The notes below the pieces were generated by a model. That model was given only the letters and a program-made list of their open reading frames with translations, searched no databases and had not been told where the DNA came from. From contig JAGSHN010000012.1 of assembly GCA_029855935.1 (NCBI GenBank), forward strand, positions 272,869 to 336,868: a DNA stretch of 64,000 bases, read 5' to 3'. This DNA comes from Candidatus Thorarchaeota archaeon. GTDB taxonomy: Archaea > Asgardarchaeota > Thorarchaeia > Thorarchaeales > Thorarchaeaceae. The translations under genes were made by a program, and so were the position numbers. This document shows positions 16,666 to 35,816 of the stretch, in pieces; the first letter of the stretch is position 1; every line of letters starts with the position of its first letter.

Positions 16666-16669
16666 AACG

Positions 16670-17587: not shown

Positions 17588-17592
17588 GAGGA

Positions 17593-18303
17593 ATGCGAGC
17601 ACTCTTGAGCAGAGAATCAGGACCAGAGCGTCAGTGGCCACCCGCCCCCGGAGACTATGAGGTCGGCGATCCACTGCTCCCCGTGGCGATATGTACACTG
17701 GGCAAGAAGATCTCTGTGCCCTCGAAGTATGCCATCATTGGGACCTGCAAGACAGAGAACATAGGTATCGAGAGAGTGATAGTCAACATAGTCTCCAACC
17801 CGAACATTCGCTATCTGATTCTCGCGGGGCCTGAGGTCCCGGGTCACAGAACTGGCTCAACACTGAGGAGCCTGTATGACCACGGTGTCGACCCCCACAC
17901 ACGGAGAGTTCTGAATGCACCCGGTGCGATACCATATGTAGAGAACGTTCCTCTTGAGGCCGTCGAACGCTTCAGGGAGCAGATTGAGCTGGTTGATATG
18001 ATGAACGTGTCAGACCCAGAACGTATCGCTCGACAGGCGGAGGATCTTCTCTCGAGAGGCGCGGAGCCCTTCCCCAAGCCACCCATCTGGGTCGACTTTG
18101 GCCATGCGAAACGGGAGCGTCGCGGCAAACAGCCGAGCGGAGATGTCTGGGTCATCCCGGAATACGGTGTGTCAATCGATCCCGCGACCTCTGTCATAGG
18201 ACGTGGAGCACCGTCTGCGACCGTCCCTGTCGGCAAGGGTCATGTCGTCGTCGAGGTGATCTCCGAAGACGGGGGAACAGTACTCTTCACGAGGGAGGAA
18301 TGA
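17593..18303 (+). CDS. MtrA-like corrinoid-binding protein, soluble (no C-terminal membrane anchor)
   Basis: 236 aa; GDYEVGDP, GTCKTENIGIERVIVNIVSNPNIRYLILAGPEVPGHRTG, GVDPHTRRVLNAPGAIPYVENVPLEAVERFREQ align closely with methanogen MtrA (KTENLGIEKV...NPNIRFL...GH.TGQ...GAPGAIPF.EN...EAVERF). The C-terminus is hydrophilic. Confidence 0.75.
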   Translation: MRALLSRESGPERQWPPAPGDYEVGDPLLPVAICTLGKKISVPSKYAIIGTCKTENIGIERVIVNIVSNPNIRYLILAGPEVPGHRTGSTLRSLYDHGVDPHTRRVLNAPGAIPYVENVPLEAVERFREQIELVDMMNVSDPERIARQAEDLLSRGAEPFPKPPIWVDFGHAKRERRGKQPSGDVWVIPEYGVSIDPATSVIGRGAPSATVPVGKGHVVVEVISEDGGTVLFTREE

Positions 18304-18306
18304 CGG

Positions 18307-19242
18307 TTGTTTCTCTTTGACAAGGAACAGGCAGTGTTTGACGTCAGAGGTGTACGCTTTGGTGGCTCGCCAGGCGAGTTTCCCACGGTTCTCGCAGGGT
18401 CGATATTCTATGATGGTGACAAGATAGTGGAGGATGCCTCCCGAGGAACGTTCGACAGGGCTGCCGCCGAACGATTGATCAGCCTCCAGGATGAGATGTC
18501 GGACACCACGGGGAATCCCTGTGTGGTGCAGATAGTATCCTCTTCTACAGAGGCGATTGAGAGGTATATCGACTTTGTTGCCGATGTCACCGATGCCCCT
18601 ATCATCATCGACTCGACCTCCCATGAGGTACGCATCCGGGGGCTTCGCCATGCTGAGGAGGTGGGCCTGTTCGATGGCGTGATCTACAACTCGCTAAATG
18701 TGTCCATCACGAGGGAGGAGATTGAGGCGCTCTCTGAGATCCCGCCCGAGGCCGCTATTGTTCTTGCCTTCAATCCTCAAGATTCCTCGATGGCCGGTCG
18801 TCGTGCTGTTCTCGAACAGGGCGTCCATCGACTTGAGAGTGGACTGCTCCAGATGGCCGAGCAACTTGGTGTTCAGAAGCCGCTGATCGACACCGCTATC
18901 ACATCAATCGGAGCAGGTGCTGGCTCCTCTGTCGCCTTCATCTTTGTCGCAAAGGCCGCCTACGGCCTGCCCACGGGCGCTGGGATCCACAACGCGCCCG
19001 CATCGTGGCCGTGGTTGATCAGCTATCGCAAGAAGGACCGCGAGGCATTCAAGACCTGTGACGTTTCCTCAAGTCTGATGGTCCAGATGATGGGTGGAGA
19101 CTTTGTTCTATATGGTCCAATCAAGAACGCGCCGCGCGTCTTTCCCGTGGCCGCAATGGGTGATGTCATTGCAGCTGAGATGGCTCAAACGGAGTTGGGA
19201 ATAGAGCCAGCTGAGGGTCATCCTCTGTTTCGGCTCACATAG
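18307..19242 (+). CDS. mtrH: MtrH-like methyltransferase (paralog 2; closest to canonical MtrH)
   Basis: 311 aa; MFLFDKEQAVFDVRGVRFGGSPGEFPTVLAGSIFYDGDKIVEDASRGTFDRAAAERLISLQDEMSDTTGNP is nearly collinear with methanogen MtrH N-termini. Confidence 0.85.
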   Translation: MFLFDKEQAVFDVRGVRFGGSPGEFPTVLAGSIFYDGDKIVEDASRGTFDRAAAERLISLQDEMSDTTGNPCVVQIVSSSTEAIERYIDFVADVTDAPIIIDSTSHEVRIRGLRHAEEVGLFDGVIYNSLNVSITREEIEALSEIPPEAAIVLAFNPQDSSMAGRRAVLEQGVHRLESGLLQMAEQLGVQKPLIDTAITSIGAGAGSSVAFIFVAKAAYGLPTGAGIHNAPASWPWLISYRKKDREAFKTCDVSSSLMVQMMGGDFVLYGPIKNAPRVFPVAAMGDVIAAEMAQTELGIEPAEGHPLFRLT

Positions 19243-19248
19243 GAGGCG

Positions 19249-20682
19249 ATGATTGGCATGCCCTTTCGTTTCATCCGGCCACGCGGTCTGAGCACCGCGT
19301 CCTTGCGAAGGGGACCCTTCTACGTTGTTGCATCTGTGGAGCTGGGTAACACCACGACCAAGTGCATAATCGTGGCCACGGACCTCCGCAATGGCCGGAT
19401 GTACGAGCTCGCCAAGGTGGTACGTCCAACGCGCGACGTCCGTCCCCCAGCACCAGACGAAGAGGTGTTCGGCCGCACAGTGGTCGGTGTTCCTCTCACG
19501 CGAGAGTCTGTCAGCGAGTTCGTCCGTGACGTACTACTTGCAACTGTCGATCGTGCCCGACTCGACCTGTCACACGACCTACACTTTGTCGTCCGTTCAA
19601 CAGGTGTGACTGCAGGATTTGCGCGTCCCGAGGAGGTCGGAGAGATGGTGAAGGCCCTTGCCGACGGGTGCCTCTCTGCTGGTATCTCACCACGCCTGAT
19701 GACCGCCTCGCTGACCCCTGAGAACCTCCCTCCGGGCATCCGGGACTTCACTTGGCTCAGGAAGGTATACTTCGATGGCGCTATCGCAGGTTGTCTGCCG
19801 CCCGCTGACACGGGCGTAGTGGCCAACGAGATGGAGGGCGAGCTCGTCACTGCCGGAATCAAGGGCGCCGCTCGGTCTGCTGGGGTGGACTTCCGCAGCC
19901 CAGTGATCACATTGGACTTCGGAACGACTCTTGCAGGGCGGGTCACAGATGCCTCCCTTCCTTATGCAAAGACCGTGGGTTCTTTTGCGGGTCTTGCTGG
20001 CGCGATTCCCGATGCTCTGGCACGAGGATCCGACCTGGTCGACCCCGAGACTGGTACGGCGCTCGAGCTACCAAGGCCCTCCGGGACCCTAGACGATGGT
20101 ACCAGTGGTATCGAGGAGGATGTGGAACGGGTGCACGGGTTGATCCGCGTGCAGCGGGTGGCCAAAGGCAGAACTCGATTCGGTACGGTCCCTGTTGATC
20201 CCCGTGCTGCAGAGGAGGCTGGACTCGTTCTCGTGGGTGTCGATGTGGGTGACAACGGTTCTGGCCTCGCTGTCCTCACAGAGATTGGTCGCGAGGTCTA
20301 TGACCGTGGCGGTGTCCGCCTCCTGACCCTTCTTATTGACCTCGTACAGGTAGGACTTGTCGAGCGCATCATGAAAGTGGTGGATGCAAGTGGCCTTCTC
20401 CTGAGAGGGACATCACTTGGCCTGACAGGACGTGCCATCCTCACGGGACAGAAGCCACGCCTCTTGGCGCAACGACTGAGGGCACCTGACGGGTCTCTGT
20501 GGGCTGACACCCGTCTCCTTGTTCTTGTCGAGGACGGTCTTGCTATGGGTGCTGGCGTCGCCGCGAGATGTATGAACTCACTCGGGACGCCTAGGAATCC
20601 GATTGGTGGCCGCAGAGGTGACGGCTGCATCATGGCCCAGCGTATGAGGCTACAGGGCGAGAGGCGTGGGAACGGCGGCTGA
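19249..20682 (+). CDS. ASKHA-fold ATPase (hydantoinase/acetate-kinase-like), possibly H4MPT-linked C1-transfer pathway protein or corrinoid-activation ATPase
   Basis: 477 aa; N-terminal phosphate-1 loop VELGNTTTKCII and later glycine-rich DFGTTLAG motifs typical of the actin/hexokinase/Hsp70 (ASKHA) superfamily. No Fe-S cysteine clusters. Located inside the MtrH/MtrA cassette. Confidence 0.4.
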   Translation: MIGMPFRFIRPRGLSTASLRRGPFYVVASVELGNTTTKCIIVATDLRNGRMYELAKVVRPTRDVRPPAPDEEVFGRTVVGVPLTRESVSEFVRDVLLATVDRARLDLSHDLHFVVRSTGVTAGFARPEEVGEMVKALADGCLSAGISPRLMTASLTPENLPPGIRDFTWLRKVYFDGAIAGCLPPADTGVVANEMEGELVTAGIKGAARSAGVDFRSPVITLDFGTTLAGRVTDASLPYAKTVGSFAGLAGAIPDALARGSDLVDPETGTALELPRPSGTLDDGTSGIEEDVERVHGLIRVQRVAKGRTRFGTVPVDPRAAEEAGLVLVGVDVGDNGSGLAVLTEIGREVYDRGGVRLLTLLIDLVQVGLVERIMKVVDASGLLLRGTSLGLTGRAILTGQKPRLLAQRLRAPDGSLWADTRLLVLVEDGLAMGAGVAARCMNSLGTPRNPIGGRRGDGCIMAQRMRLQGERRGNGG

Positions 20683-20716
20683 TGGTCGTCCCCAGGCTGC
20701 GGCGTTCGCAGGCCTT

Positions 20717-21535
20717 ATGAGAATGGTCGTGGCCCTCTCACGCGAGGTATGTGTTCCCTTGCTTGTCATCCCGATAAAGACCCGTATGATCACTCCCGAG
20801 GACGACCTCCTGACGGTGATTGCCGAGGGGATGGAGCATGCTGGCCAAGTCTTTGAGGACCGCGACATCTTGGGGGTGGCCGAGACGCCCCTGGGAACCA
20901 CCGAGGGAAGAGTCGTCAGGCTTGCGGATGTCGAGGTGTCCCCGGAGGCCAAGCGTCTCGCTGATGAGTACGACCTGCTCCCAGAGGTGGCACAGCTCGT
21001 TATGGATGAGGCAGACGAGATCCTTGGTGGTATTCCTCACGTCCTCCTGACGATAAAGAACAACACGCTGATGGCCAATGCGGGTGTCGACAAGTCGAAT
21101 GTGCCACCAGGGTATGCCTCGCTCCTGCCTAAGGACCCACGGGCGAGCGCAGAGCGCATCCGTCGCGAGGTGAGAAGGCGATTCGGGAAAGACGTAGGGG
21201 TCGTAGTCATTGACAGTCGCACTCAACCTCTGCGACTGGGAAACATCGGGATGGCGTTGGGAGTCGCTGGCTTCAGACCCGTCGTTGATGAGAGGGGAAA
21301 GAAGGATCTCTTCGGCAATGTGTTGAGGGTGACGCGGAGGGCTGTGGCAGATAACCTTGCCTCAGCGTGCACACTCGTGATGGGAGAGTCAAGCGAGTCC
21401 GTGCCCGCTGCTCTGGTCAGAGGAGCGCCAGTGGAGTTCGTCGATTCCTCCTTTGACTCTGCCGAGATGTGGATTCCCCCGGACGAGTGCATGTATATGG
21501 CCATCTTCAACAGGTGGAGAAACGCCGAGAGCTAG
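20717..21535 (+). CDS. cofE: CofE-like F420-0:gamma-glutamyl ligase family protein
   Basis: ORF 20666..21535 (likely start MRMVVAL at about 20717). ANAGVDKSNVPPGYASLLPKDP...VGVVVIDSRTQPLRLGNIGMALGVAGF...DERGKKDLFGN...ADNLASACTLVMGESSESVP matches CofE motifs (ANAGIDESN..., IIADTNGR, DDRG.EDL.G). Confidence 0.75.
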   Translation: MRMVVALSREVCVPLLVIPIKTRMITPEDDLLTVIAEGMEHAGQVFEDRDILGVAETPLGTTEGRVVRLADVEVSPEAKRLADEYDLLPEVAQLVMDEADEILGGIPHVLLTIKNNTLMANAGVDKSNVPPGYASLLPKDPRASAERIRREVRRRFGKDVGVVVIDSRTQPLRLGNIGMALGVAGFRPVVDERGKKDLFGNVLRVTRRAVADNLASACTLVMGESSESVPAALVRGAPVEFVDSSFDSAEMWIPPDECMYMAIFNRWRNAES

Positions 21536-21640
21536 CTATTTAAGATAGGTCATATGCCTGATTCCGCGTAGCGAGAGTGGGCCGCGGTCGGGTGTGACCA
21601 CCGGCCGGGGCACAGCCTCGAGTTGTGAGGACCGAACGAT

Positions 21641-22990
21641 ATGAGTGAGAGAGTAGTGCTACTGGATGTCAGATCAGCAGGTGCCTCAGGGGACATGTTC
21701 CTCTCCGCGCTCCTTGACCTTCTTGGTGATCAAGAGGCCCTTATGAGAGTGGCTGCCAGTCTGTTGATCTACGACCCCTCCATAAGGGTAAAGGTCGAAG
21801 AGGTTTCGGCAGACGGTCTGAGGGGTCTGCGCGTGGATATTCATACCGACAAAGGAATACGCCTGTCCCCAGAGTCGCTGCGAGAGGTGATAAAGGGAGT
21901 TGCCGACGAGATTCAGCTCTCGGACATTGCCACCAAGTTCTCATATCGTGTTCTTGACAGGCTGCTTGAGGCGGAGTCCAAGGCCCATGGCACGCCAATT
22001 GACCAGCTCCATCTCCATGAAACAGGCTCTGTGGATACTGTCCTTGATATCGTAGGAACCGCCTATCTGCTAGAGCGTTTCGGTCTCCTGGGAAAGGTGC
22101 GCTTCCTCTCCACTCCGGTCGCTGTCGGAGACGGGACAATTGAGACAGAGCACGGCGAGATGGAGGTCCCCGTCCCAGCTGTCGCAGAAATACTGGTCAG
22201 TCACGACGTACCCTACGTCACGGGAGAGGCCACCACCGAGGCCTTGACTCCGACTGGCGCTGCGATTCTCGTCACGCTTGTCGACGAGTTCGTGGAGTCG
22301 ACAGTAGACATCGAGATAGTGAAGGAGGGTGTGGGATTTGGCTCACGTGACCTGGGGAGGGTGCCGAATGTGATGAAGATTGGGATTGGCAATCGTCCCG
22401 AGGCTGCCGAGGCTGCTCCTGTTGCCGACCGCGTAACCACCACGACCCGCGCGAGAGCTCCCACGGCCAAGCCAGTCACAACAACGGGCAAGAAATCCTC
22501 GGCGCCCACGGGGGTGGGCGTCTGGGAGACCGACCAGGTCCTTGTCATAGAGACCACGGTCGACGACGTAGATGGTGAGGCTATCGGGTCAATCTTCGAC
22601 ACGCTGCTCTCCAGTGGTGACGCCTATGACGTCATAATGATACCTGCCTTTGGTAAGAAGAACCGTCCGTGTTATGTCATCAAGGTGTTGGCTCCCGAGT
22701 CCAGCCTTATGACCGTGGCTGAGACCCTTGTCCGGCATCTCGGCTCTCTTGGTGTGCGGTATACTACGTGGGATCGGCTCAAGGCTGTCCGTGAGATAAT
22801 CGTGTGCCGCTTGGAGATAGATGGCAAGGAATACATGGTCCGGGTGAAGGTCTCGCGTTCACCGGATGGCAGCATCATCAATATCAAGCCCGAGGCTGAT
22901 GACCTGATGAAGGTGTCTGCTGAGACTGGTATGCCTGTGCGCGAGCTCAAGCCGCGTGTGGCGCTCCAAGCCTATGCAGTCACCGACTGA
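21641..22990 (+). CDS. larC: LarC-family nickel-pincer cofactor biosynthesis protein (DUF111)
   Basis: 449 aa; N-terminal VVLLDVRSAGASGDMFLSALLDLLGD is the hallmark LarC start (LYLDCFSGISGDM). Thr/Ala-rich linker, then the C-terminal DUF111 domain. Confidence 0.8.
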   Translation: MSERVVLLDVRSAGASGDMFLSALLDLLGDQEALMRVAASLLIYDPSIRVKVEEVSADGLRGLRVDIHTDKGIRLSPESLREVIKGVADEIQLSDIATKFSYRVLDRLLEAESKAHGTPIDQLHLHETGSVDTVLDIVGTAYLLERFGLLGKVRFLSTPVAVGDGTIETEHGEMEVPVPAVAEILVSHDVPYVTGEATTEALTPTGAAILVTLVDEFVESTVDIEIVKEGVGFGSRDLGRVPNVMKIGIGNRPEAAEAAPVADRVTTTTRARAPTAKPVTTTGKKSSAPTGVGVWETDQVLVIETTVDDVDGEAIGSIFDTLLSSGDAYDVIMIPAFGKKNRPCYVIKVLAPESSLMTVAETLVRHLGSLGVRYTTWDRLKAVREIIVCRLEIDGKEYMVRVKVSRSPDGSIINIKPEADDLMKVSAETGMPVRELKPRVALQAYAVTD

Positions 22991-25542: not shown

Positions 25543-25931
25543 CGAGCCTGCCCGCTGTCTGCTCGTTCGCGTCCAGTCTGTGAACGGCCGTCGGCATCCT
25601 CTACCATCGTGTCAGACGGTATCTGTCTTATTGCCACTGGGTGTCTATTCGATATGACATTGTCCTCCTAGACTGATGGCCGAAAGTAAGCAGGCGTGGT
25701 TCGCCTAGTCCCTCTGGGTATACAGGCTGGCGACAGACCCCCAGTACTCAACGGTCCTCGGCCCAGCAAGAATCGGTCTTCTGATGCATCTGGCCTCAAA
25801 AGTGTGGCCCACCAGAGTGCCATACCGCAGGACAAGTTTCTTATTACCCATTCGCACAACACCACAGGACTAGAACGGATGACTGGTAAGCAGTTCTTCC
25901 CGTGCTCACAAATCCGTCTGGTGGTCACGCA

Positions 25932-26498
25932 ATGGTTACGGCACTATTCAAGGTCGTTCTGATGGGCGATGGCTCAGTCGGCAAGACAAGTCTTCGCAGG
26001 GCCTACATGGGCGAGGGATTCCGTGCCTCCTATATGATCACAATCGGGGCAGACTTTGCTGTCAAGAAGATGGTGCTCGAGGGCGGTCACGAGGTCAGCA
26101 TTCAGATCTGGGACCTCGCCGGTCAGGAACACTTCAAGAACGTCCGTTCTACCTTCTACAAGGGCGCCCAGGGGGCCCTTGCTGTCTATTCAACTGTCGA
26201 GCGCTCCTCATTTGAGAACTTGCCCAACTGGATTCAGGAGTGCTGGCATAATGCCGGAAAGAAGATTCCCATTGTTGTCATCGGCAACAAGATTGACCTG
26301 AGACAACAGTTCGAGGGCAATCCTGCCATGCGGCACAACATCGTGACCACGGAGGAGGGTCGAAGGCTCGCAGAGGAGCTGGCCAAACAGGGAGTCCATA
26401 CGTCATTTCTGGAGACATCGGCCAAGACTGGCGAGAACGTCGAGGCAGCATTCCTTGAGCTTGCAATAAAGATTCTTGAGGCTGGTGGGTTGGGATAG
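25932..26498 (+). CDS. Ras-superfamily small GTPase (Rab/Ras-like)
   Basis: ORF 25902..26498; likely start MVTALFKVVLMGDG. G1 GDGSVGKTS, switch I/RabF-like TIGADF, switch II WDLAGQE, G4 GNKIDL, G5 ETSAK. No C-terminal prenylation Cys. Confidence 0.8.
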   Translation: MVTALFKVVLMGDGSVGKTSLRRAYMGEGFRASYMITIGADFAVKKMVLEGGHEVSIQIWDLAGQEHFKNVRSTFYKGAQGALAVYSTVERSSFENLPNWIQECWHNAGKKIPIVVIGNKIDLRQQFEGNPAMRHNIVTTEEGRRLAEELAKQGVHTSFLETSAKTGENVEAAFLELAIKILEAGGLG

Positions 26499-26598
26499 AG
26501 GTCTGTCGCCAACAGATTTGCTTGTTCATCTTGCGCCTCTTTTTTCACAACACTTTTAGCGGTCCCGCCGCGCTTGACAGCCATCATAGAGTGACCGG

Positions 26599-27738
26599 AT
26601 GCGACATCTGATGAGTACAGAGGACCTGTCACTATTCCTCAGACCAAAGACGTTGAAGGCTCCGGCAGAACACGGCTCAGAGATCACCCGCAGGCTTGCC
26701 ATAAACAGGGTTGGACGGATGTACGCAGCTGCAATGCAAGACCGCACAATCCGTCTCTTTGATGTTCGGAACGGCGAGGAGGTGCAGGTCTTTGAGGATA
26801 ACTTTCTCTGCACGAGTATCGCATTCAGTCCACATGGTGATATCATTGCCTCTGGCGGTGTCGACCGCGTGATCAAGCTGTGGGACATCAGAACAGGAGA
26901 GCATCTTGCCACTCTTGAGGGTCACAGCTATCCGGTCTTGAGCCTCTCGTTCTCTCCCGATGGTGACAGACTCGTCTCAGGCGGTGGCGATGCCACTCTG
27001 ATGATATGGGATATTGGCAATCGCTCTCAGATCCGACAGCTGAAGGGTCACTCACTCTACGTCGTCACCTGTCAATGGGACCCCAACGGCGGGCGCATAG
27101 TGTCGGGCAGCGTGGACTCCTTCATCGGTGTGTGGGATCCCGATTCGGGCAAGCGTCTTGCTTGGCTACAGGAACATCACACTGCAGTGCACGCCGTCCG
27201 CTTCACGAATGACGGTCAGACGCTTGCGTCTGGCTCATCCGATCAGACAATAAAGATCTGGGACGCCTCGGTGCCGACGCTGAGGCTGAAACAGACGCTC
27301 CGGCGGCACTCTGCCGAGGTACGCTGTCTTGCCTTTTCATCCGATGGCCGCTATCTTGCGTCCGGGTCAAGTGACAGGGAGCTCTATGTCTGGCTCACAG
27401 ATGGGTACGTCAAAGCAGGCGAGGGTTCCACGCTCAGCGAGATTGATGGCATTGAGTGGCTTCCTGAGAGGTCGGCATTTCTCACCGCGGATGGCTCAGG
27501 TGCAGTCATCCGCTGGGAGGTAGAGGATCTCGAAACGGTTCTTGCACCCTTCAAGGCGCTGTTGTCTGAAATCGAGGCCGACACAACGCACTCCCGGCGC
27601 GAGGAGCTAATTCAGAAGTTCGAGACCCTGAAGTCCCAGTACGATCCTGAAGTGCTGCGTGACAAGAGGGTGTTCTATGCTGTCTGGCAATGCAAGAGAG
27701 GTCTTGGACTGCTGAAGGGCACTCCGGCGAGACAGTGA
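26599..27738 (+). CDS. WD40-repeat beta-propeller protein
   Basis: 379 aa with about seven repeats ending in ...WD: ASGGVDRVIKLWD, VSGGGDATLMIWD, VSGSVDSFIGVWD, ASGSSDQTIKIWD, ASGSSDRELYVW. Confidence 0.8.
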   Translation: MRHLMSTEDLSLFLRPKTLKAPAEHGSEITRRLAINRVGRMYAAAMQDRTIRLFDVRNGEEVQVFEDNFLCTSIAFSPHGDIIASGGVDRVIKLWDIRTGEHLATLEGHSYPVLSLSFSPDGDRLVSGGGDATLMIWDIGNRSQIRQLKGHSLYVVTCQWDPNGGRIVSGSVDSFIGVWDPDSGKRLAWLQEHHTAVHAVRFTNDGQTLASGSSDQTIKIWDASVPTLRLKQTLRRHSAEVRCLAFSSDGRYLASGSSDRELYVWLTDGYVKAGEGSTLSEIDGIEWLPERSAFLTADGSGAVIRWEVEDLETVLAPFKALLSEIEADTTHSRREELIQKFETLKSQYDPEVLRDKRVFYAVWQCKRGLGLLKGTPARQ

Positions 27739-27757
27739 GTTGTTCATACCCTTCGCA

Positions 27758-28435
27758 CTAGAAACTCCTGCCGGAACGCTTCTTGGTCGCGTTGTCTATC
27801 ATGACCTCACACAGCTCAAGGAAGGCCCGTTCGACGTTCTCGCCTGTTAGCGCACTGGACTCGACGTAGAGTGACCCAATCTTGTCAGCGTAGGCCTTGC
27901 CCTCCTCCGTAGAGACCACTCGAATGTCCTCAAGGTCTATCTTGTTGGCAACGACGATCATTGGAATCACTCGGCCTGTGCTGTTGAATGCCTCCTCTCT
28001 CCAGCGGTCAAGATTGAGAAACGTGCGCCTTCTTGTGACATCATAGACCAGGAGGCCTCCCCGTGCGCCCCTATAGAATGACTGCCTGACGACCTCAAAC
28101 CTCTGCTGGCCTGCGAGATCCCATACCTGCAGTGTGACCTTTGCATCTCGACTGGGCACCTGAACTCTTTTGATTGCAAAGTCACTTCCGATGGTCCGCT
28201 TGTAGTCAGACTCGAAATGGTCTTGGGTGAACCTGACCGTCAGCGCAGTCTTTCCCACGGCGCCATCACCGAGCATGACCACTTTGAACCTGTACTCTGC
28301 AGGCACAGGGCTCACATCCTCGTATCGCCATTGTGCTGGCGCCTTAAAACACTTGCCGACTCGTATACCCTCCAATCCGCCTCTGACGGACGGATTTCGG
28401 CGGTTGTGACGTAAGTGTAGGATCGTCTTCCTCAT
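27758..28435 (-). CDS. Ras-superfamily small GTPase (Rab/Ras-like), second copy
   Basis: G1 GDGAVGKTA, TIGSDF, switch II WDLAGQQ, G4 ANKIDL, G5 ESSAL. The ORF's ATG gives a 55-aa N-terminal extension. An in-frame GTG at about 28315 (VSPVPAEYRFKVVMLGDG) would give a canonical-length GTPase. Confidence 0.75.
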   Translation of the reverse strand: MRKTILHLRHNRRNPSVRGGLEGIRVGKCFKAPAQWRYEDVSPVPAEYRFKVVMLGDGAVGKTALTVRFTQDHFESDYKRTIGSDFAIKRVQVPSRDAKVTLQVWDLAGQQRFEVVRQSFYRGARGGLLVYDVTRRRTFLNLDRWREEAFNSTGRVIPMIVVANKIDLEDIRVVSTEEGKAYADKIGSLYVESSALTGENVERAFLELCEVMIDNATKKRSGRSF

Positions 28436-28522
28436 TATGATTTAGTGATCAGGTCCCCAAAATGCACACATCATTTAATAAGAGAATGCGCAATTCGAGC
28501 TTGATTTCCGCCGAGATGATTC

Positions 28523-28903
28523 GTGATGAAGCGCCCTGACTACGCGGAGCTTGCAAGGATACTTGAAGAGATGAACGAGGAGGGTGGGTACTATGCATCC
28601 ATCCTTGCACGCGACGACGGGCTACTGATAGCCTCTGCTGCTAACGCATCGACAAACCGCGAGATAGTCGCCGCGATGGCAGGCTATGTTGCATCGACTG
28701 TCGAGAGGATGCGCAATGAGCTCCATCTCGGAGAGCTGACCGAGATATCGGTCCGGTGCACCGAGGGAAAGGCTGTATTCCGTAAGATTCTGCGTGGGAA
28801 GGATCAGGCGCTGATACTTGCAGCAGTGATGCCGCGTCACATCCGGTATCACTCCCGTGCTCTCGGAAAGGGAGCAACACGGATACGAAAACTGCTTAAG
28901 TGA
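28523..28903 (+). CDS. Roadblock/LC7 (MglB-like) domain protein
   Basis: 126 aa; size and alternating hydrophobic pattern (GGYYASILARDDGLLIAS...ILAAVM) fit the Roadblock/LC7 alpha-beta fold. Immediately downstream of the small GTPase. Confidence 0.55.
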   Translation: MMKRPDYAELARILEEMNEEGGYYASILARDDGLLIASAANASTNREIVAAMAGYVASTVERMRNELHLGELTEISVRCTEGKAVFRKILRGKDQALILAAVMPRHIRYHSRALGKGATRIRKLLK

Positions 28904-28968
28904 GCCGCACGAATTCACAGGTGTACATCTTCACCGTTCGGCAACTCCAACGCTTGAGGAGACGGAAC

Positions 28969-29294
28969 ACTTGACAGACACGGATGCCGACTCGAACAGT
29001 GATGACGTCGGGGAGGACACCTCGGACAAGATCGAGGTCCTCTTCTTCAAGTCGGACACGTGTGCATTCTGTCCCAGGGCGGAGGAGGTGCTTCGCGAAA
29101 CCCTTGAAGAGTTCGGAGCAGACATGTTCAAAGTGATTGTCTATAACGTATCAGAAGACCCCGAGAAGGCAGAGGAATACGGGATATTCGCCCTGCCTGC
29201 GATAATCATCGGCGGGATGTCGGTAACAGGCATACCTGAGCCGGAGATAATAATGAAGATGATACTAGGGTCCAAACTCGGTACGAGGAGTTGA
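28969..29294 (+). CDS. Thioredoxin/glutaredoxin-like small redox protein (CxxC)
   Basis: ORF 28857..29294 overlaps Roadblock; a TTG at about 28969 is the likely start. Acidic N-terminal tail, then the thioredoxin-fold pattern VLFFKSDTCAFCPRAEEVL...FALPAIIIGG. Confidence 0.55.
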
Positions 29295-29301
29295 GTCGAC
29301 A

Positions 29302-30045
29302 ATGAGTCAGTATCAGATTGATAGGGTCAAGACCGGGATACCCGGCCTCGACGAGCTAATAGAGGGTGGATTTCCCCGAGGGGACACCATTCTGATTGCC
29401 GGAAAGGCGGGCACCGGGAAGAGCATTCTCGCCACCCAGTTTCTCTACAGAGGCGCTGTGGACTACAATGAGCCGGGTGTGCTGGTCACCCTGGAGGAGC
29501 CGCCTCGTCTCATCAAGCGGAACATGATGCGGTTCGGAATGGACCTTGACAAGCTCGAGCGCGAGGGGATGCTCTCAATAGTTGATCTCTCGCCCGCACG
29601 GGACACTCCACTGAACATAAGCGAGTATCCGTCATTCGACCTCTCGGGCCTCGAGGCCATCATAATGCATCACATCAAGAAGGTAAATGCCCAGCGTGTT
29701 GTCATCGACACAATCTCCATCCTCGCGTACAAATTCAAGGCGCGGGACATTCTTCGTGAGGAACTGTTCAAACTGTGTGCCCACATCACCAGCACTGGTT
29801 GTACGCTGTTGCTCACAAGCGAGATTCCGGCTCAGGACACTGGCCTTGGCGTCTTTGACATTGAGGCGTTCCTCGCATCGGGCGTCATAGTGCTCTACAA
29901 CGAGAAGATCAGTGACACCTCCCGCTCAAGGTCCATAGAGGTTCTGAAACTGAGGGGCTCGAAACACAGCTCTCGCATTCACTCGATGCGTATTACTGAC
30001 GAGGGGATACGCGTCTGGCCTGGTGAGATTAGTCCCGGAACGTGA
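29302..30045 (+). CDS. KaiC-like / RecA-superfamily ATPase (single domain)
   Basis: 247 aa; TGIPGLDELIEGGFPRGDTILIAGKAGTGKS (Walker A) and VVIDTIS (Walker B), typical of archaeal KaiC/RadA-like signalling ATPases. Confidence 0.7.
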   Translation: MSQYQIDRVKTGIPGLDELIEGGFPRGDTILIAGKAGTGKSILATQFLYRGAVDYNEPGVLVTLEEPPRLIKRNMMRFGMDLDKLEREGMLSIVDLSPARDTPLNISEYPSFDLSGLEAIIMHHIKKVNAQRVVIDTISILAYKFKARDILREELFKLCAHITSTGCTLLLTSEIPAQDTGLGVFDIEAFLASGVIVLYNEKISDTSRSRSIEVLKLRGSKHSSRIHSMRITDEGIRVWPGEISPGT

Positions 30046-30060
30046 TAGGAGGCGAGAGAC

Positions 30061-30780
30061 GTGAGTAGTAGCGACGATCCCGCCGAGGTACCACCGCCGA
30101 CTCTTGCGCGACCGATGCTGGGCGATCTCGTTCAGTTCGGTCAGCTGACACAGGTCTCAATCATGCTTGTCGGCCCTCTGGGGTCAGGCAAGACGACCTA
30201 TGCTGAAGCATTCCTTGCAGAGGGACTGCGTCTGGGCTTTCCGGCGGTCTTCGTCACGACCGATGTGTCACCTCGCGTCATACGCAACGACATGGCCCGT
30301 CACGGATGGCCAGTGGACGAATACGAGAAGGCAGGGCAGTTCGTCTTCATTGACGGCTATTCGGAGAGAATGGGCGCGCCGAGGAGCAGCACTGCTTACT
30401 CACTCTCGAAGGTGGACGACATAACGGAGCTTGGCATAGTCCTGTCGGAGGTGCTCGACGACCTTGTAGTGGCACGGATAGTTGTGGACAGTCTCTCAAC
30501 ACTCATTCTCCACTCCAATCCGGCGACGATGCCGCGGGCCGTGCAGCGTCTGAGTGGACGACTCACTCAGAGCTCCCACAGCATTATGTACATACTTGAA
30601 GAAGGGGTCCACGATGAGAAGACCTACGCCACCTTCTCCTACTTGGCTGACGCTGTCCTGCGCTTCAAGGTGGACGAGTCTGGGCCCGAGCCGAGGCACT
30701 ACGTCCGGATGGAACGGATGCGTGGCACAGAGACCACCCGGGCGTGGATGGAGTTCGTCCTCGAGCGACCAGAAACCTAA
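30061..30780 (+). CDS. KaiC-like / RecA-superfamily ATPase, second paralog
   Basis: 239 aa; Walker A GPLGSGKTT, Walker B IVVDSLS, same fold pattern as the preceding gene. Confidence 0.6.
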   Translation: MSSSDDPAEVPPPTLARPMLGDLVQFGQLTQVSIMLVGPLGSGKTTYAEAFLAEGLRLGFPAVFVTTDVSPRVIRNDMARHGWPVDEYEKAGQFVFIDGYSERMGAPRSSTAYSLSKVDDITELGIVLSEVLDDLVVARIVVDSLSTLILHSNPATMPRAVQRLSGRLTQSSHSIMYILEEGVHDEKTYATFSYLADAVLRFKVDESGPEPRHYVRMERMRGTETTRAWMEFVLERPET

Positions 30781-30809
30781 TAGAGCCAGTCTCCAGTTCC
30801 GGAGTCGAG

Positions 30810-33131
30810 ATGCCCCTCCTGGAATCACCAATCCTCTCCGTCATGCGGGATGTGCTCTGTGGTTCTATGTCCCTTGAGGACGGTCTGTCCGCTCTTCAGA
30901 CTCTTGGCAGGACCCATCCCAGTGAGGTCGATCTGGCCTTTGAGATCGCAAGGGCCATTGAGGAGGTGATTCTGAGGAGGCCGGTCCTTGCGAGCGCGAA
31001 GCTCACGGAGCTGATGGTCCGTCACTCCTTCTCGGAGAACAGGTCACTACCTCTGCTACTCATGCTGATGGAGACACGGTATACGAACTCTTTCAGGAGA
31101 AACGAGGCAGAGCTGCTTCCTGACAAGGAGGCACTCCCTCGTCTGCTGGACATCCTTGGTGAACTTGCACAGTCGGTTGGCGTTGCACTGGAGCTCAATC
31201 TACGACCTCTTCTGCCATTTCTCGCCGATGAGACACTGCTCACCCTTGACGCGATCTATGCACGAGGTCATAGGCCCTCGATTCGTCTGTCCCTCCGCGA
31301 GGCGCACTACCTCGCAAGTCTTCTCATCGATCAGGGGCTGTCTGAGTGCGCAGAGGCCCTTCTCCACCGCGTGCTGCATCTCTCTCGTGATGTGGAGATG
31401 TACGACCTTGCCTACGAGGTCTTGCTTGATGAGGCCTATGTCCTCACTGAACTGGGTCTCTATGACGATTGCCGTGCACTCCTTGCCCCAGCAATCGAGG
31501 AGGCGGAGAGGACAAAAAATCTTGAACGACTGGCCTCGCTGACACTCTGTCTCGTCGTCAATGAGACACGTGACGACGCTGTCGACCATGTCAGAGCAAG
31601 GACGATGGGTGATCGTGCTGTGTCCCTGTTTGCAGAGGCGGTATCTCAGTCGCTACTCCCGCGGACAGAGCTTGCCATGGCCTACCTCGTGATTGGGTCG
31701 AGCATTCTCGGCACGGGCTGGCGAGAGGGCGTCCGAGAGGCCATCGAGAGGTTTGAGTCGGCTCTGCATGTTCTTGACGACATTCAGGATGGAGAAATCA
31801 CGGTCTCTATGATGCTGTTCAAATGTTTCGCCGGGCTGGGCTTTGCACACGCTCTGAGCGGAGGTTATGAGAATACAGAACTGGCGATTGACCATCTGAA
31901 TCGGGCCCTGGCAATCCTCCGCCAGCTGGAACGCAACGGCGAGGACTTGCGTGCTGAGCGTGCCCGTTGCCATCACGCAATCGGGTGGGCGGCACTGCTC
32001 TCCGAGTCCGACGAGTTCTGGGAGAGGGGTATCAGTGCATTCAGAGAGGCCACCAGACTCAGGAAGGTGCTACAGGAGGAGAGGCGCATTCCTCCAATTG
32101 AGACTCTTGGTAGCCAACTTGGTCTGACTCTGTCGGAGCTGAGGACTGTCGAGTCTATTGACGACTCGATGTACACGTCACTTCGCGATGTCCTACTGCA
32201 GTACGTCCCCCTCTTTCCAACGGACTCGAGGTCATATGTAGAGGTTGCCATTGCAGTGTATGATGTGGCGTGGACAATCCATCGTCACGGCCTTGAGATA
32301 TCGCCACGCATACTTCGACTCTTCGACGACATTGTCAGAATGCTCGACGAGAGCAAGGTTGTTGAGGGACGGTCCTTCGTGGCCGGGGCCCAGCTCGTTG
32401 TACCCTGCCTCGCCCGGGAGTGGAACCAGCTGGAGCGCTTGGCGTCTGTTGTGGCCGCCGAGGAAGAGTCCCTCGACGTCGGGCTCCGAAGTGTCGCTCG
32501 TCTAATGGGAGCCCTGGCTGTGGCAAAGATGAATATTGAGGGACTCGACTCGCTTGGCCCTGAGGAGGTGCGTGATCCGGTCTCTCCTGAGGTGCAGGAG
32601 GCAGACCCGCTCCTGGCTGGCTATTGGGCGGCCCAAGCGGCAATCATCCGCTGTGTATCCACATTTCGAGCGGACGGAAGCCTTGAGAACTTCGCCTCTG
32701 GACTTGAGCAGGCCGCACAGCTCTGCGATAGGATTCCCTCTGACCCAGCTGGCTATGAGCTCTCGGAATTTGTCCGGGCGACATCCGCTTCACTTGGCTC
32801 GGTTCTGTATCAGTTTGCCAGCGTACTGAAGTCCAGGCTGTCCGATCAGGACGTGAGGATCACAGACCACACTCGGACGGAGTCGCTCGGGACGAGCGAG
32901 CCCGTCTCTATGATTCTCTCGGAGGACTGGCTTGGGCTCATAAAGATCACAAGTGCCTACCTACAGATGATTGAGCGGGATCCTGACCTAGATCTTGAGC
33001 CGTATCTGCGTGCAATCCAGTCTAACCTCTTGCGGGCTGTGAGGGTGATGGACCGTACGGCCATGATTGAGAGACGCCTTCTCTCCAGACTCGGTCTTGA
33101 GATGAATCGCCGTTACTATATGCGGCGCTGA
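30810..33131 (+). CDS. Large all-alpha (TPR/helical-repeat-like) hypothetical protein
   Basis: ORF 30744..33131; likely start MPLLESPIL at about 30810, right after the KaiC-2 stop. About 770 aa, Leu/Ala/Glu/Arg-rich with helical periodicity and no catalytic motifs. Confidence 0.45.
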   Translation: MPLLESPILSVMRDVLCGSMSLEDGLSALQTLGRTHPSEVDLAFEIARAIEEVILRRPVLASAKLTELMVRHSFSENRSLPLLLMLMETRYTNSFRRNEAELLPDKEALPRLLDILGELAQSVGVALELNLRPLLPFLADETLLTLDAIYARGHRPSIRLSLREAHYLASLLIDQGLSECAEALLHRVLHLSRDVEMYDLAYEVLLDEAYVLTELGLYDDCRALLAPAIEEAERTKNLERLASLTLCLVVNETRDDAVDHVRARTMGDRAVSLFAEAVSQSLLPRTELAMAYLVIGSSILGTGWREGVREAIERFESALHVLDDIQDGEITVSMMLFKCFAGLGFAHALSGGYENTELAIDHLNRALAILRQLERNGEDLRAERARCHHAIGWAALLSESDEFWERGISAFREATRLRKVLQEERRIPPIETLGSQLGLTLSELRTVESIDDSMYTSLRDVLLQYVPLFPTDSRSYVEVAIAVYDVAWTIHRHGLEISPRILRLFDDIVRMLDESKVVEGRSFVAGAQLVVPCLAREWNQLERLASVVAAEEESLDVGLRSVARLMGALAVAKMNIEGLDSLGPEEVRDPVSPEVQEADPLLAGYWAAQAAIIRCVSTFRADGSLENFASGLEQAAQLCDRIPSDPAGYELSEFVRATSASLGSVLYQFASVLKSRLSDQDVRITDHTRTESLGTSEPVSMILSEDWLGLIKITSAYLQMIERDPDLDLEPYLRAIQSNLLRAVRVMDRTAMIERRLLSRLGLEMNRRYYMRR

Positions 33132-35215
33132 CTCTCCGAGTGTGTCACTGGTCTGTACTCACCGGGCCGCGCACCCCACGTTGCCCATCCTGACGTGGCT
33201 GTTCTGAGCTCATTTGCAAGGCCGAACGACTCTCTGACAGGAATCTCTGCCTCGACCTTGTACAATCCGCGCTCCGTCTCAATGCTCAGGACACGCCCCT
33301 TTCTGCGGGCGAGGACGGAGGTGACCTCTCCGACATACTCCTCTGGCATGGTTATCTCCAGATGCATCCACGGCTCCAACAGGACGGGCTCGCCGGTGAT
33401 CACACTCTCACGGGCTGCGTCCAGCAGCGGCTGTGTGACATCTCTCCAAGACGTCTCGGGGCCGGCGGCCCTGATGTCTGCCCTCAGTATCTCAATGGTG
33501 ACCCTTCGCATGCGTTCTCCAGCTACCGGACCATTCCGGATGAGCGCAGAGAAAGCCTCTCTGATCCATTGTGCCTCCTCGGAGTGAGGATTGACTGTTC
33601 TAGTCCTATCAATCAGGTAGTTGAGAGAGTGTCTCTGTGCTGCAAGCACGACATCCTCAGCATCTGGGAGGTAGTCCTCAGGTGTTAGTATGGCACGAGC
33701 AGTAAACTCGCTGGCTGGCGGCCCACCACGTGTGACCGCCTCCCCGTCGTGTGTCATCTGTTCCTTCAACAACACCATAGGCCTTCCCAGAACGACGTCG
33801 ACCCCCTGATGGGAGAGCTTCTCCACTGCTATCTCGACATGCAACTCGCCAGCACCAGAGAGGAGCATCTCTCCAGTCTCGGGGTTGACGCTGAACTCAA
33901 GAGCAGGGTCACAGGCCGCAAACTCTGCAATTGGCTGCTGAATCTTGCTGAGGTCCTTGAGCACCCTCGGCTCGACGGTATACGTCACAACAGGTTCGGT
34001 GGGATACTGCAGCCCCATCATCGGAGCCGCTCTCTCGACCGACGCATCCACGAGTGTGTCCCCGATGGCGATGTCTTTGAGGCCGGTGAGGAATGCAAGA
34101 CTACCGCAGGGGACTGTGTCGAGGGCGACACGAATCTTCGACATCGTGATGCCCACCTGCAGTGTCTTCGACACTCGTCCTGTGCGCAGGTTTCTCAATG
34201 GCGCTGCTCTGTTCAACGTTCCACTGAACACCCGGCCAGTGCTGACGGTACCAGCGTGACGGTCAGGTCGGACATCCGCCACAACAACGACGCATGGTCC
34301 TGCGGGATTGCAAGTCCTGAGCGCTGCATACACACTCTCGTCACACTCGGGGCTCCAGAACCGAGGAACTCTATAGGACTGTGCCTCTACTGGGCTTGGC
34401 GTTGTCCTGACAAGAGAGTTGAGCACAACGGGCGCGATAGGAAACCTGTCCTGCAGTCGCCGCTCGTCCCCAGCATAGTATGCGGAGAGGATATCGTCTA
34501 GAACTGAGAGGAACGCCTCCGCGAGATCTCTCGGACTGTCTCTGCCATCAGTCCTCTGGAGGAGAGTCTCGATGCCTATCCCCCACTTATCGAGAGCGGA
34601 ACCAATGGTCAGCGACCCCCTCCTGAAGGAGATCTCCCATCTGTCAAGGAGGTCGGCCTCAAGGTACTTTCCGAGCATTGCGTTGAACTCGCGCACGACT
34701 CTCTGCACCTCTGAGGCCACCTTGTCCCGACGCAGACGCCTCTCTGTGATCAGCCGGTCTACCTTGTTGACGAACAGACATGGTCGGACGAGTTCGTAAG
34801 CTGCCTGCCTCGTCACCGTTTCGGTCTGGACCATTATGCCCTCTATTGCATCCACCACGACCAGTGCGCCATCGGTGAGTCTCAGCCCTCTCGTCACATG
34901 GCTTGAGAAGTCGATATGTCCTGGAGTATCGATGAGGTGCACAAGATATTCCTCTTCATTCATCGAGTGGATGAGGGATATGCTCGACGCCTTGATGGTG
35001 ATGCCTCTCTCCTGCTCTATGAGGTCATAGTCCATTAGACGCGCTCTTGCTGCGACGTCTTTGGACAGCAGGCCGGATGCAGCTATCAGCGAGTCTGTGA
35101 GTGTGGTCTTCCCGTGGTCTATGTGGGCAATCACGGTGCAGAGCCTGATTCGCTCTGGCGAGTCGACTAGTTTGCTCACCCGTTCGGTGACGAACTTCTT
35201 GTAGAGCCTCGACAC
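33116..35215 (-). CDS. Elongation factor 2-like GTPase paralog lacking the diphthamide His motif
   Basis: 699 aa; G domain AHIDHGKTTL, DTPGHIDF, NKVDR and collinear EF-2 domains II-V. The domain IV loop reads ILRADIRAAGPETSW where aEF-2 has LHEDAIHRGPAQV, so the modified His and flanking residues are substituted. Confidence 0.8.
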   Translation of the reverse strand: MSRLYKKFVTERVSKLVDSPERIRLCTVIAHIDHGKTTLTDSLIAASGLLSKDVAARARLMDYDLIEQERGITIKASSISLIHSMNEEEYLVHLIDTPGHIDFSSHVTRGLRLTDGALVVVDAIEGIMVQTETVTRQAAYELVRPCLFVNKVDRLITERRLRRDKVASEVQRVVREFNAMLGKYLEADLLDRWEISFRRGSLTIGSALDKWGIGIETLLQRTDGRDSPRDLAEAFLSVLDDILSAYYAGDERRLQDRFPIAPVVLNSLVRTTPSPVEAQSYRVPRFWSPECDESVYAALRTCNPAGPCVVVVADVRPDRHAGTVSTGRVFSGTLNRAAPLRNLRTGRVSKTLQVGITMSKIRVALDTVPCGSLAFLTGLKDIAIGDTLVDASVERAAPMMGLQYPTEPVVTYTVEPRVLKDLSKIQQPIAEFAACDPALEFSVNPETGEMLLSGAGELHVEIAVEKLSHQGVDVVLGRPMVLLKEQMTHDGEAVTRGGPPASEFTARAILTPEDYLPDAEDVVLAAQRHSLNYLIDRTRTVNPHSEEAQWIREAFSALIRNGPVAGERMRRVTIEILRADIRAAGPETSWRDVTQPLLDAARESVITGEPVLLEPWMHLEITMPEEYVGEVTSVLARRKGRVLSIETERGLYKVEAEIPVRESFGLANELRTATSGWATWGARPGEYRPVTHSESQRRI

Positions 35216-35225
35216 TCGCCCTACC

Positions 35226-35816
35226 CTACCCTATCATCTCGTAGTCCGACTTGGGGATGACGACTGCTGCTCCACAACTGGAGCATCTGAAGTGGACGTT
35301 CTGGCCACTCGCCTCAGGAGTTCCGCGTAGGGGTCTGCCACACTTACAGACGAACCCTATGAGCCGCGCGGGATTGCCAACGACAAGGCCGTGAGCGGGA
35401 ACGTCTCTCGTGACCACTGCACCACTGCCCACCATACAGTACTCGCCCAAGACGGTGTCGCACACTATCGTGGCGTGTGCGCCTATAGAGGCCCCCCTCT
35501 TCACAAGAGTCTTTGATACCTTCCAGTCCTGCGAGAATGCCCTGGGATACAGATCATTGGTGAACGTCATATGGGGCCCGCAGAACACGTCATCCTCGAT
35601 TGTCACACCGTGGTAGACGGAGACACCATTCTGAATCTTGACCCTGTTGCCAATCACGACATCGGCGTCGATATACACATCCTTACCTATGATGCAGTCC
35701 TCGCCAATCGTCGCTGTTCCTCTGACGTGCGCAAAGTGCCAGATCTTTGTTCCACGGCCAATCTTTGCGCCCTCGTCGACAACGGCCAGTGGGTGAATGA
35801 ACACATCATTGTTCAT
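35226..35816 (-). CDS. Left-handed beta-helix (hexapeptide-repeat) acyl/acetyltransferase with C-terminal zinc ribbon
   Basis: 196 aa; repeated [LIV]G-x-x-x-x-I hexapeptides (IGRGTKI, IGEDCIIG, IGNRVKI) and C-terminal CKCG...CSSCG. Confidence 0.75.
   Translation of the reverse strand: MNNDVFIHPLAVVDEGAKIGRGTKIWHFAHVRGTATIGEDCIIGKDVYIDADVVIGNRVKIQNGVSVYHGVTIEDDVFCGPHMTFTNDLYPRAFSQDWKVSKTLVKRGASIGAHATIVCDTVLGEYCMVGSGAVVTRDVPAHGLVVGNPARLIGFVCKCGRPLRGTPEASGQNVHFRCSSCGAAVVIPKSDYEMIG

Follow-up and report, generated by a model that had tools for sequence, protein, structure and literature searches.

Elongation factor 2 (EF-2) was for a long time regarded as a single-copy protein, and both it and its diphthamide modification as universal among archaea and eukaryotes. 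Eukaryotes also evolved specialized EF-2 paralogs, viz., EFL1 and Snu114, and their closest known archaeal relatives are the Asgard archaea. A second archaeal EF-2, termed aEF-2p, was described by Narrowe et al. (2018, Genome Biol Evol 10:2380; PMC6143161) from Thor-, Loki-, Odin-, and Heimdallarchaeota, Korarchaeota, and Bathyarchaeota, in a study that assembled Thorarchaeota bins and reported the dph genes to be missing in most Asgard archaea, some Korarchaeota, and a few Bathyarchaeota. Most Asgard genomes have two EF-2 copies: aEF-2p, in which the G1–G5 motifs are conserved and the HxDxxHRG and SPHKHN loops are gone, and a canonical copy, which in the aEF-2p lineages keeps the His, shows Thr in place of Arg, and has lost the loop Lys (PMC6143161). 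aEF-2p was read as a likely GTPase and an unlikely translocase (PMC6143161), and Eme et al. (2023) make the same point regarding aEF-2p and dph. Here, we analyze a gene at 33116–35215 on the reverse strand of a 64,000-nucleotide stretch of a Candidatus Thorarchaeota archaeon (GCA_029855935.1, contig JAGSHN010000012.1, positions 272,869–336,868; henceforth the window, to whose numbering all coordinates refer unless a different locus is named). The gene is almost certainly a Thorarchaeota-type (Thor-type) aEF-2p, i.e., a paralog of archaeal EF-2 (aEF-2). It is thus another ortholog of a class known since 2018 and described in this very phylum, and the phenomenon itself is not new.

A preliminary description of this stretch, made from the sequence alone, had recognized an EF-2-type protein with intact G-domain motifs here, and both points hold: the open reading frame (ORF) is exact, archaeal EF-2 is the best match among both families and structures, and none of G1–G5 is missing, their conservation across 120 relatives being at least 88%, some switch-I positions excepted. 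The gene and its parts are organized as follows, with the conservation of individual motifs referring to the same relatives:

33116–35215, reverse strand: aEF-2p coding sequence, 699 aa, GTG start; from the ORF list, 100% identical to database protein P0001, N-terminus aligned with orthologs from residue 1.
34316–35155, reverse strand: G domain including G', about residues 21–300; Pfam GTP_EFTU at 21–220, E 8.6e-47.
35102–35128, reverse strand: G1/P-loop AHIDHGKTT, residues 30–38; at least 97% conserved, invariant against canonical Asgard aEF-2.
34994–35008, reverse strand: G2/switch I RGITI, residues 70–74; R70, G71, I72, T73, and I74 invariant across the paralog and canonical Asgard aEF-2.
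34916–34930, reverse strand: G3/switch II DTPGH, residues 96–100, with the catalytic His100; at least 99% conserved, invariant also against canonical Asgard aEF-2.
34757–34768, reverse strand: G4 NKVD, residues 150–153; N150, K151, and D153 invariant also against canonical Asgard aEF-2.
34595–34603, reverse strand: G5 GSA, residues 205–207; at least 99% conserved.
34499–34546, reverse strand: G' insertion of about 14 aa relative to canonical aEF-2, about residues 224–239; by MAFFT, a G' segment of 37 versus 23 residues, with a modeled helix at 228–247.
34031–34303, reverse strand: domain II, about residues 305–395; Pfam GTP_EFTU_D2/EF-G_D2, beta strands in the model.
33776–34003, reverse strand: domain III, about residues 405–480, the best conserved domain of the family; Pfam EFG_III, E 8.6e-18.
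33392–33766, reverse strand: reduced domain IV, about residues 484–608, lacking the helical insert and the SPxKHN loop, as judged from the missing Pfam EFG_IV match, the alignment, and the segment lengths.
33428–33475, reverse strand: domain IV tip, residues 581–596, with the motif PETSWR[DE][IV]TQP and Glu587 (33455–33457) at the diphthamide-His position; from the HMMER and MAFFT register and the conservation in relatives.
33140–33391, reverse strand: domain V, about residues 609–692, Pfam EFG_C, E 4.6e-23; 7–8 residues follow it, the canonical tail (…IRxRKGL…) being lost (tail of 8 versus 29–35 residues).

The protein is present as a public database entry derived from metagenome contigs about 470–490 kb long. 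Pfam recovers GTP_EFTU, domain 2, EFG_III, and EFG_C, and EFG_IV (PF03764) has no match either in it or in any of the 120 listed relatives. Its best NCBIfam model is archaeal EF-2 (TIGR00490, 485.9 bits, E 1.8e-145), at a score below the equivalog cut-off of 738.45 bits, and the bacterial-type EF-G model (TIGR00484) yields 248.8 bits relative to a cut-off of 659.4. The top matches among solved structures are archaeal EF-2s (that of P. horikoshii, 5h7j, at E 5e-135), each aligned in two separate blocks, between which the first half of domain IV is left out. As the best NCBIfam and Protein Data Bank (PDB) matches are all aEF-2, the protein belongs with the five-domain a/eEF-2 branch. An AlphaFold2 model built from 128 aligned sequences (pLDDT 82.5, pTM 0.75) superposes best on the GMPPCP-bound aEF-2 of M. 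nitroreducens (TM 0.87, rmsd 3.2 Å). Membership in the Tet(M), EF-G, LepA, or BipA families was rejected, all of them falling below their cut-offs or lying outside by the tree. Gene decay was also discarded as an account of the gene, given the intact ORF, the more than 100 conserved ortholog clusters, and the near-invariant motifs. At the level of sequence, the protein thus displays every hallmark by which aEF-2p was defined, namely the EF-2 architecture, the G1–G5 motifs, the loss of both loops, and phylogenetic separation from the canonical clade.

The divergence from EF-2 is unevenly distributed along the protein. Mean column conservation among 120 family members is 0.79 for G, 0.74 for II, 0.82 for III, 0.62 for IV, and 0.77 for V, and identity of the window protein to canonical aEF-2 is 0.39, 0.31, 0.39, 0.17, and 0.35, respectively. 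Both measures are lowest in domain IV, indicating that the change is concentrated there; the canonical Asgard copy retains an identity of 0.29 in this domain, as against 0.17 for the window protein. Domains G, III, and V of EF-2 and EF-G dock at the ribosomal GTPase-associated center and couple hydrolysis to domain movement, and domain IV is the part of EF-2 that reaches the decoding center. In the window protein, domain IV comprises 125 aa rather than the 151–154 aa of canonical aEF-2, the shortening being due to deletion of the helical insert typical of a/eEF-2. The C-terminal tail of EF-G and eEF2 packs back onto domain IV, so that the loss of this tail and the shrinkage of domain IV would go together. 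The preliminary description had put the protein about 30 aa shorter than typical aEF-2, which is correct as a net figure: the difference between 699 aa and 729–737 aa is composed of a gain of 14 in G' and losses of about 27 in domain IV and about 25 in the C-terminal tail. Structural modeling, which had been suggested as a check, predicts that what is left of domain IV is a compact, folded beta/alpha domain with pLDDT mostly 79–93 and lower confidence only at the tip.

At the tip, the segment ILRADIRAAGPETSW (residues 576–590) lies opposite LHEDxxHRGP both in the HMMER alignment to P. horikoshii EF-2 and in two MAFFT alignments, all of which agree. It has no His; Glu587 is aligned to the diphthamide His, and the HxDxxHRG loop is replaced by one that reads IRAAGPETSW, bearing out the earlier claim that the diphthamide His and its context are lost. 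A mis-registered loop alignment, which had been raised as a potential source of error, was rejected, since HMMER and both MAFFT runs concur and no register supplies a His. The second loop, SPxKHN/SPHKHN, is not conserved either, and its equivalent, TRGGPPASE, is variable across the family. The stretch from P586 to L597, PETSWR[DE][IV]TQPL, is one of the most highly conserved in the protein: all 120 relatives have W590, T594, and P596, 118 have E587, and 115 have S589. By its conservation in the alignment, the tip is replaced rather than decayed, and the new version is under strong constraint. The motif is specific to the Thor-type family, whose domain IV is only 18% identical to that of its sister lineage (44% identical overall).

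This constraint is compatible with the hypothesis of Narrowe et al. that aEF-2p compensates for the loss of diphthamide, acting as a back-translocase or as a fidelity or frame-maintenance factor on elongating ribosomes beside a diphthamide-less canonical aEF-2. A strongly conserved tip is what a contact with a defined ribosomal or tRNA site would call for, the full EF-2 fold is kept, the presence of the paralog correlates with the absence of dph, and back-translocation by eEF2 is cited as sensitive to the diphthamide state (PMC6143161). However, the elements that contact the codon-anticodon helix are all replaced or deleted, the 18% identity between the domain IVs of the Thor-type and sister proteins would be odd for a universal decoding-center contact, and K. 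cryptophilum and Geoarchaea lack dph and have no paralog (PMC6143161). On balance, we regard such compensation, the main rival of the reading that we prefer, as unlikely.

The window protein has a large family of intact relatives, falling into more than 100 clusters at 90% identity, each 59–70% identical to it, the nearest at 69–70%. Most of the labeled ones are from Candidatus Thorarchaeota, and they are annotated as ‘GTP-binding protein’ or ‘elongation factor 2’. The next relatives in an exhaustive search of 50%-identity representatives are at 44%, namely P0121, which is unlabeled, and P0122, whose cluster has an Odinarchaeota-labeled member. The same search recovered further His-less clades of 613–763 aa with the labels Odin (including the closed LCB_4 genome), Loki/Promethearchaeota, Helarchaeota, Heimdallarchaeota, Korarchaeota, and Bathyarchaeota. 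The paralog is found in most Asgard groups, and the preliminary description, which had spoken of paralogs in a few lineages, notably Asgard and Korarchaeota, named the right groups and understated their breadth, Thorarchaeota alone contributing the more than 100 clusters. Among the representative proteins P0121–P0270, the His-less EF-2-like ones form at least four or five deep clades, one of them made up of proteins of about 650 aa with a sole labeled member from Heimdallarchaeota; Odin-labeled metagenome-assembled genomes (MAGs) occur in two different ones, the P0122 type and that of P0127 (LCB_4). The tree of 2018 had two aEF-2p clades, which the present diversity seems to exceed.

A neighbor-joining (NJ) tree of 127 sequences and 688 columns, i.e., a distance tree without an outgroup, with bootstraps on a 72-sequence subset, places the window protein inside the Thor-type clade (100/100), to which P0121 is the first to attach (97/100), followed by P0122 (100/100). 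A separate clade (100/100) is formed by the Asgard aEF-2 that retain the His (750 aa, HEDPxHT[G/S/Q], with EFG_IV), and the window protein also clusters away from the long eukaryote-type sequences. The window protein is 29% identical to the canonical Asgard type and 34% to standard archaeal aEF-2, and the canonical Asgard aEF-2 P0170 is itself 35% identical to the standard archaeal form. The two Asgard copies are about equally far from standard aEF-2; both are fast-evolving, and domain IV alone tells which is the canonical one.

A metagenome scan recovered canonical proteins of 737 aa whose loops read HNDPAHTG and SPNGHN, the signature published for the canonical copy; they share 30% identity with the window protein. 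For one of these HNDPAHTG proteins, the 90% cluster holds three NCBI proteins labeled Thorarchaeota, which come from genomes other than that of the window. At the level of the lineage, Thorarchaeota thus have both genes, aEF-2p and a canonical aEF-2, and the claim of paralogy, which the sequence hallmarks and the tree uphold, rests for this particular genome on such lineage-level evidence and the literature. Among the matches listed for protein searches seeded with the His-retaining Asgard aEF-2s P0170 and P0386, the canonical copies were of the Loki type only, and the 64-kb window has one EF-2 gene.

These data bear on whether the window gene could be the organism's working translocase, i.e., a fast-evolving or sole EF-2 in a lineage that translocates without a diphthamide loop. 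A second EF-2 from the source genome was not retrieved, that genome being absent from the species representatives searched, and the other Asgard copy is equally far from standard aEF-2 (34–35% each), both of which would suit such a role. Against it, Thor-labeled MAGs carry the separate 737-aa HNDPAHTG/SPNGHN aEF-2, most Asgard genomes have two copies (PMC6143161), and the window protein has lost features that are otherwise conserved in archaea as well as eukaryotes, viz., the helical insert, the C-terminal tail, and the tip loops. Furthermore, the paralog evolves faster (60–70% identity within Thor) than the canonical Asgard copy (72–93% across MAGs with several Asgard phylum labels). We accordingly consider a working translocase highly improbable.

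Two further observations concern the canonical copies and the source of the window. Many canonical aEF-2 representatives (P0129, P0130, P0137, P0145, P0148, P0149, P0151, P0156, and P0161) are 916–1233 aa long, their match to the query begins at residue 36, and a search with the H-x-DHGK[ST] P-loop pattern gave no hit in them, which looks like the result of intein insertions in the P-loop. The GC content of the whole window is 54–59% (mean 56%), as compared with 42–46% in the 3–5 kb loci L014 and L015, which encode Thor-type canonical aEF-2 and of which L015 is the one whose cluster has the Thor labels. The DNA seems to stem from a separate lineage, related to Thor, that has been poorly sampled.

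Taking the above together, we propose that aEF-2p would bind the ribosomal factor site and hydrolyze GTP there, and it is probably a ribosome-dependent GTPase. Lacking the apparent means to act on the codon-anticodon helix as EF-2 does, it would not catalyze tRNA-mRNA translocation, a task that would fall to a separate His-retaining HxDxxHTG-type aEF-2 encoded elsewhere in the genome; that it is not a translocase is, in our estimate, only slightly less probable. Instead, its most likely task might be a GTP-dependent step outside elongation on the large subunit or the idle ribosome, such as evicting or blocking a bound factor. To our explanation of the gene as a Thor-type aEF-2p, taken as a whole, we assign a probability of roughly 0.8, its single parts being graded as stated.

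This role on the large subunit or the idle ribosome is the most tentative part of the proposal. The parts that would reach the decoding center are those that have been lost or rewritten, the EFL1 and Tet-type paralogs furnish precedents, solved structures that emerged among our structure matches (9ou7, 9rvu) have EF-2 bound to dimers of 50S and to ribosomes in hibernation, and aEF-2 itself has an activity outside elongation in Sulfolobus, where it releases aIF6 from 50S subunits (PMC8024482). These considerations point in this direction, although we would still hold such a specific role to be less than an even bet.

A narrower version is that aEF-2p is a convergent analog of EFL1, a dedicated GTPase that releases aIF6 from the 50S subunit or licenses it, with aEF-2 performing the task where the paralog is absent. 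EFL1 is likewise an EF-2 paralog without the diphthamide loop, the release of aIF6 by aEF-2 in Sulfolobus (PMC8024482) supplies the matching activity, and the 50S-facing domains of the paralog are better conserved than domain IV. Yet, at 699 aa and without the insertions typical of EFL1, the protein is not an EFL1 ortholog, and no genomic link to aIF6 or SBDS was seen in the loci examined, leaving this an unlikely explanation.

Several points weigh against the reading that we prefer, i.e., a ribosomal GTPase acting outside elongation. The strictly conserved tip could serve a modified decoding-center contact and thereby a residual or specialized translocase or back-translocase activity. In the loci examined, no genes for aIF6, SBDS, ribosomal proteins, or other translation components are linked to the paralog, except for one HflX. 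No canonical EF-2 of the source genome was recovered, as said above, the species-representative contigs having yielded four Thor-type loci; likewise, no dph-type domains occur in the 64-kb window, which says little about the whole genome. The deep nodes of the EF-2 family are known to be unstable (PMC6143161), and our tree is an unrooted distance tree. Finally, a literature text search found no functional study of aEF-2p after 2018.

The preliminary description had also noted KaiC-like genes, a helical protein, and small GTPases near the paralog, and these are indeed present. The genes flanking aEF-2p are:

35226–35816, reverse strand: WlbB/QdtC-like hexapeptide N-acetyltransferase with a C-terminal Cys4 ribbon, upstream of aEF-2p and co-oriented with it; matches 3mqg at E 1.9e-52, with a 10-nt gap to the aEF-2p start.
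28526–33131, forward strand: convergent, conserved cluster of Roadblock/LC7, Trx_3/KaiB-like, KaiC, KaiC-like (DUF7504), and a 773–795-aa protein without a Pfam hit; 16-nt 3' overlap with aEF-2p.
25902–26498, forward strand: Ras-family GTPase.
26599–27738, forward strand: WD40 propeller.
27758–28435, reverse strand: Ras-family GTPase.
28526–28903, forward strand: Roadblock/LC7.
28971–29294, forward strand: Trx_3/KaiB-like.
29302–30045, forward strand: KaiC.
30061–30780, forward strand: KaiC-like (DUF7504).
30744 or 30810 to 33131, forward strand: 773–795-aa protein with no Pfam or NCBIfam hit.

Given the 10-nt gap and the shared orientation, the acetyltransferase and aEF-2p are probably co-transcribed. 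The window, six Thor-type loci on other contigs, and the locus of the 44% sister lineage all have a co-oriented hexapeptide transferase of 195–196 aa that precedes aEF-2p at a distance of 3–22 nt; two further Thor-type loci end before the transferase side. The homologs of this enzyme are the nucleotide-sugar N-acetyltransferases WlbB (the 3mqg match), WxcM, and QdtC, and its extra tail is zinc-ribbon-like (CKCG…CSSCG). It is better conserved across lineages (61–78% identity) than the abutting EF-2 paralog (44–68%). The idea that it modifies the Ser/Thr tip of aEF-2p in place of diphthamide was judged unlikely because of its close homology to nucleotide-sugar N-acetyltransferases. Further upstream of aEF-2p are the genes for NrdD, for a thymidylate synthase of the archaeal type (TIGR03283, 219 bits), and for a regulator of the AsnC type.

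On the other side, the genes for aEF-2p and the 795-aa helical protein overlap at their 3' ends by the 16 nt of 33116–33131. No terminator-like element lies between these two convergent genes; a scan for sigma-70 promoters and intrinsic terminators says little in an archaeon. The block 25902–33131 recurs in L003, L004, L006, L008, L009, and L010. Its gene order is kept across Thor-type genomes, and the 44% sister lineage keeps the KaiC pair, the Trx/KaiB-like gene, a 130-aa Roadblock-sized gene (no Pfam hit), and one GTPase, with the gene for the 765–795-aa protein being an addition of the Thor-type loci. The block resembles a module of the KaiC/KaiB type that has been combined with a signaling unit of Roadblock and small GTPases. 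The Odin, Hel, and Heimdall paralogs have unrelated neighbors. The gene context marks orthology and hints at co-transcription, and it does not reveal function.

This stability of the locus also speaks to whether aEF-2p might protect ribosomes in the manner of the Tet(M)/Tet(O) GTPases, by dislodging a small-molecule inhibitor from the A site. Narrowe et al. draw this analogy (PMC6143161), and the Tet proteins are EF-G paralogs in which the tip loops of domain IV are non-canonical. However, the gene shows vertical inheritance, synteny, and a phylum-wide rather than a patchy or mobile distribution, genes for resistance or mobile elements are absent from its vicinity, and the NCBIfam tet_protect model gives 155.1 bits against a cut-off of 775, all of which make this a very remote prospect.

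An HflX-type GTPase gene is situated 19 kb from aEF-2p in the window (14301–15626, forward strand) and about 4 kb from it in the 44% sister (L010, 6599–7897). The HflX family includes ribosome-splitting factors, and the proximity may be a coincidence. Elsewhere in the window, 15841–22990 holds co-oriented MTHFR-like, MtrH, MtrA, second MtrH, DUF2114, F420-0:gamma-glutamyl ligase-like, and nickel-insertion (LarC-like) genes, and is a methyltransferase/C1-type module in a non-methanogen Asgard genome. A further gene at 58937–62839 (forward strand) codes for a protein of 1300 aa in which a TrmB-type HTH at the N-terminus precedes very long helical repeats of apolipoprotein-like character.

The paralog is one unexplained peculiarity of the Asgard translation apparatus. 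For functional work, the locus offers a constrained, replaced tip, mapped domain IV deletions, and a gene order stable enough to serve as a marker of Thor-type orthologs; beyond these, it makes the function of aEF-2p no more tractable. Because the paralog is annotated as ‘elongation factor 2’ or ‘GTP-binding protein’, it can corrupt marker-gene phylogenies and estimates of genome completeness, a warning that was already given in PMC6143161 and is still valid. As a speculation that we rate as improbable in its full detail, the Thor-type aEF-2p could be a neofunctionalized ribosomal GTPase, whose minimal domain IV and strictly conserved tip, with Glu at the diphthamide position, recognize a target different from the codon-anticodon helix and which acts on idle ribosomes or on free 50S subunits, in EFL1-like aIF6 release or licensing or as an A-site idling factor, perhaps co-regulated with the convergent KaiC-like/Roadblock/Ras-like cluster. 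If true, archaea closely related to eukaryotes would have independently invented a division of labor in the eukaryotic style, with a translocase on the one hand and a specialized EF-2 paralog on the other.

Among the known systems, canonical archaeal EF-2 (TIGR00490; 5h7j, 6u43) shares with the window protein the fold (TM 0.87), the domain order, the GTPase motifs, and 31–39% identity in G, II, III, and V, and differs in having EFG_IV, the diphthamide His, SPxKHN, a domain IV of about 152 aa, and the C-terminal tail, all of which the window protein lacks. The canonical Asgard aEF-2 of dph-lacking lineages (HxDxxHT[G/S/Q]; 737–750 aa) comes from the same lineages and has the same G-domain invariants, whereas it keeps the His, EFG_IV, the helical insert, and the C-terminal tail, is 29–30% identical to the window protein, and forms a separate clade. 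Eukaryotic EFL1/Ria1 is comparable in that it, too, is a paralog of EF-2 lacking the diphthamide loop; its use of GTP on the large subunit serves a step outside elongation, viz., eIF6 release, and a functional analogy is plausible. However, it is not orthologous, is about 1100 aa long with large insertions, and originated in eukaryotes beside eEF2, having been placed with eEF2 as sister to the Heimdall LC3 aEF-2 (PMC6143161). Membership of the window protein in the EFL1 family was rejected on its 213 bits to 5anb versus 455 to aEF-2, its length of 699 aa, and its clustering away from the long eukaryote-type sequences. Tet(M)/Tet(O), EF-G2, LepA, and BipA set a precedent for keeping G, II, III, and V and altering or replacing domain IV for a task other than translocation; they differ in being bacterial and in scoring 155–250 bits here relative to cut-offs of 530–775, and LepA and BipA are without any domain IV, whereas the window protein keeps a compact one. 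The closest likeness is to aEF-2p of Narrowe et al. (2018), with the same five domains, G1–G5, loss of both loops, and long branch apart from canonical Asgard aEF-2; to the main text of PMC6143161 the Thor-type family adds its own nearly invariant tip motif, a domain IV shortened by about 27 aa, the loss of the tail, a 14-aa G' insertion, and conserved neighbors.

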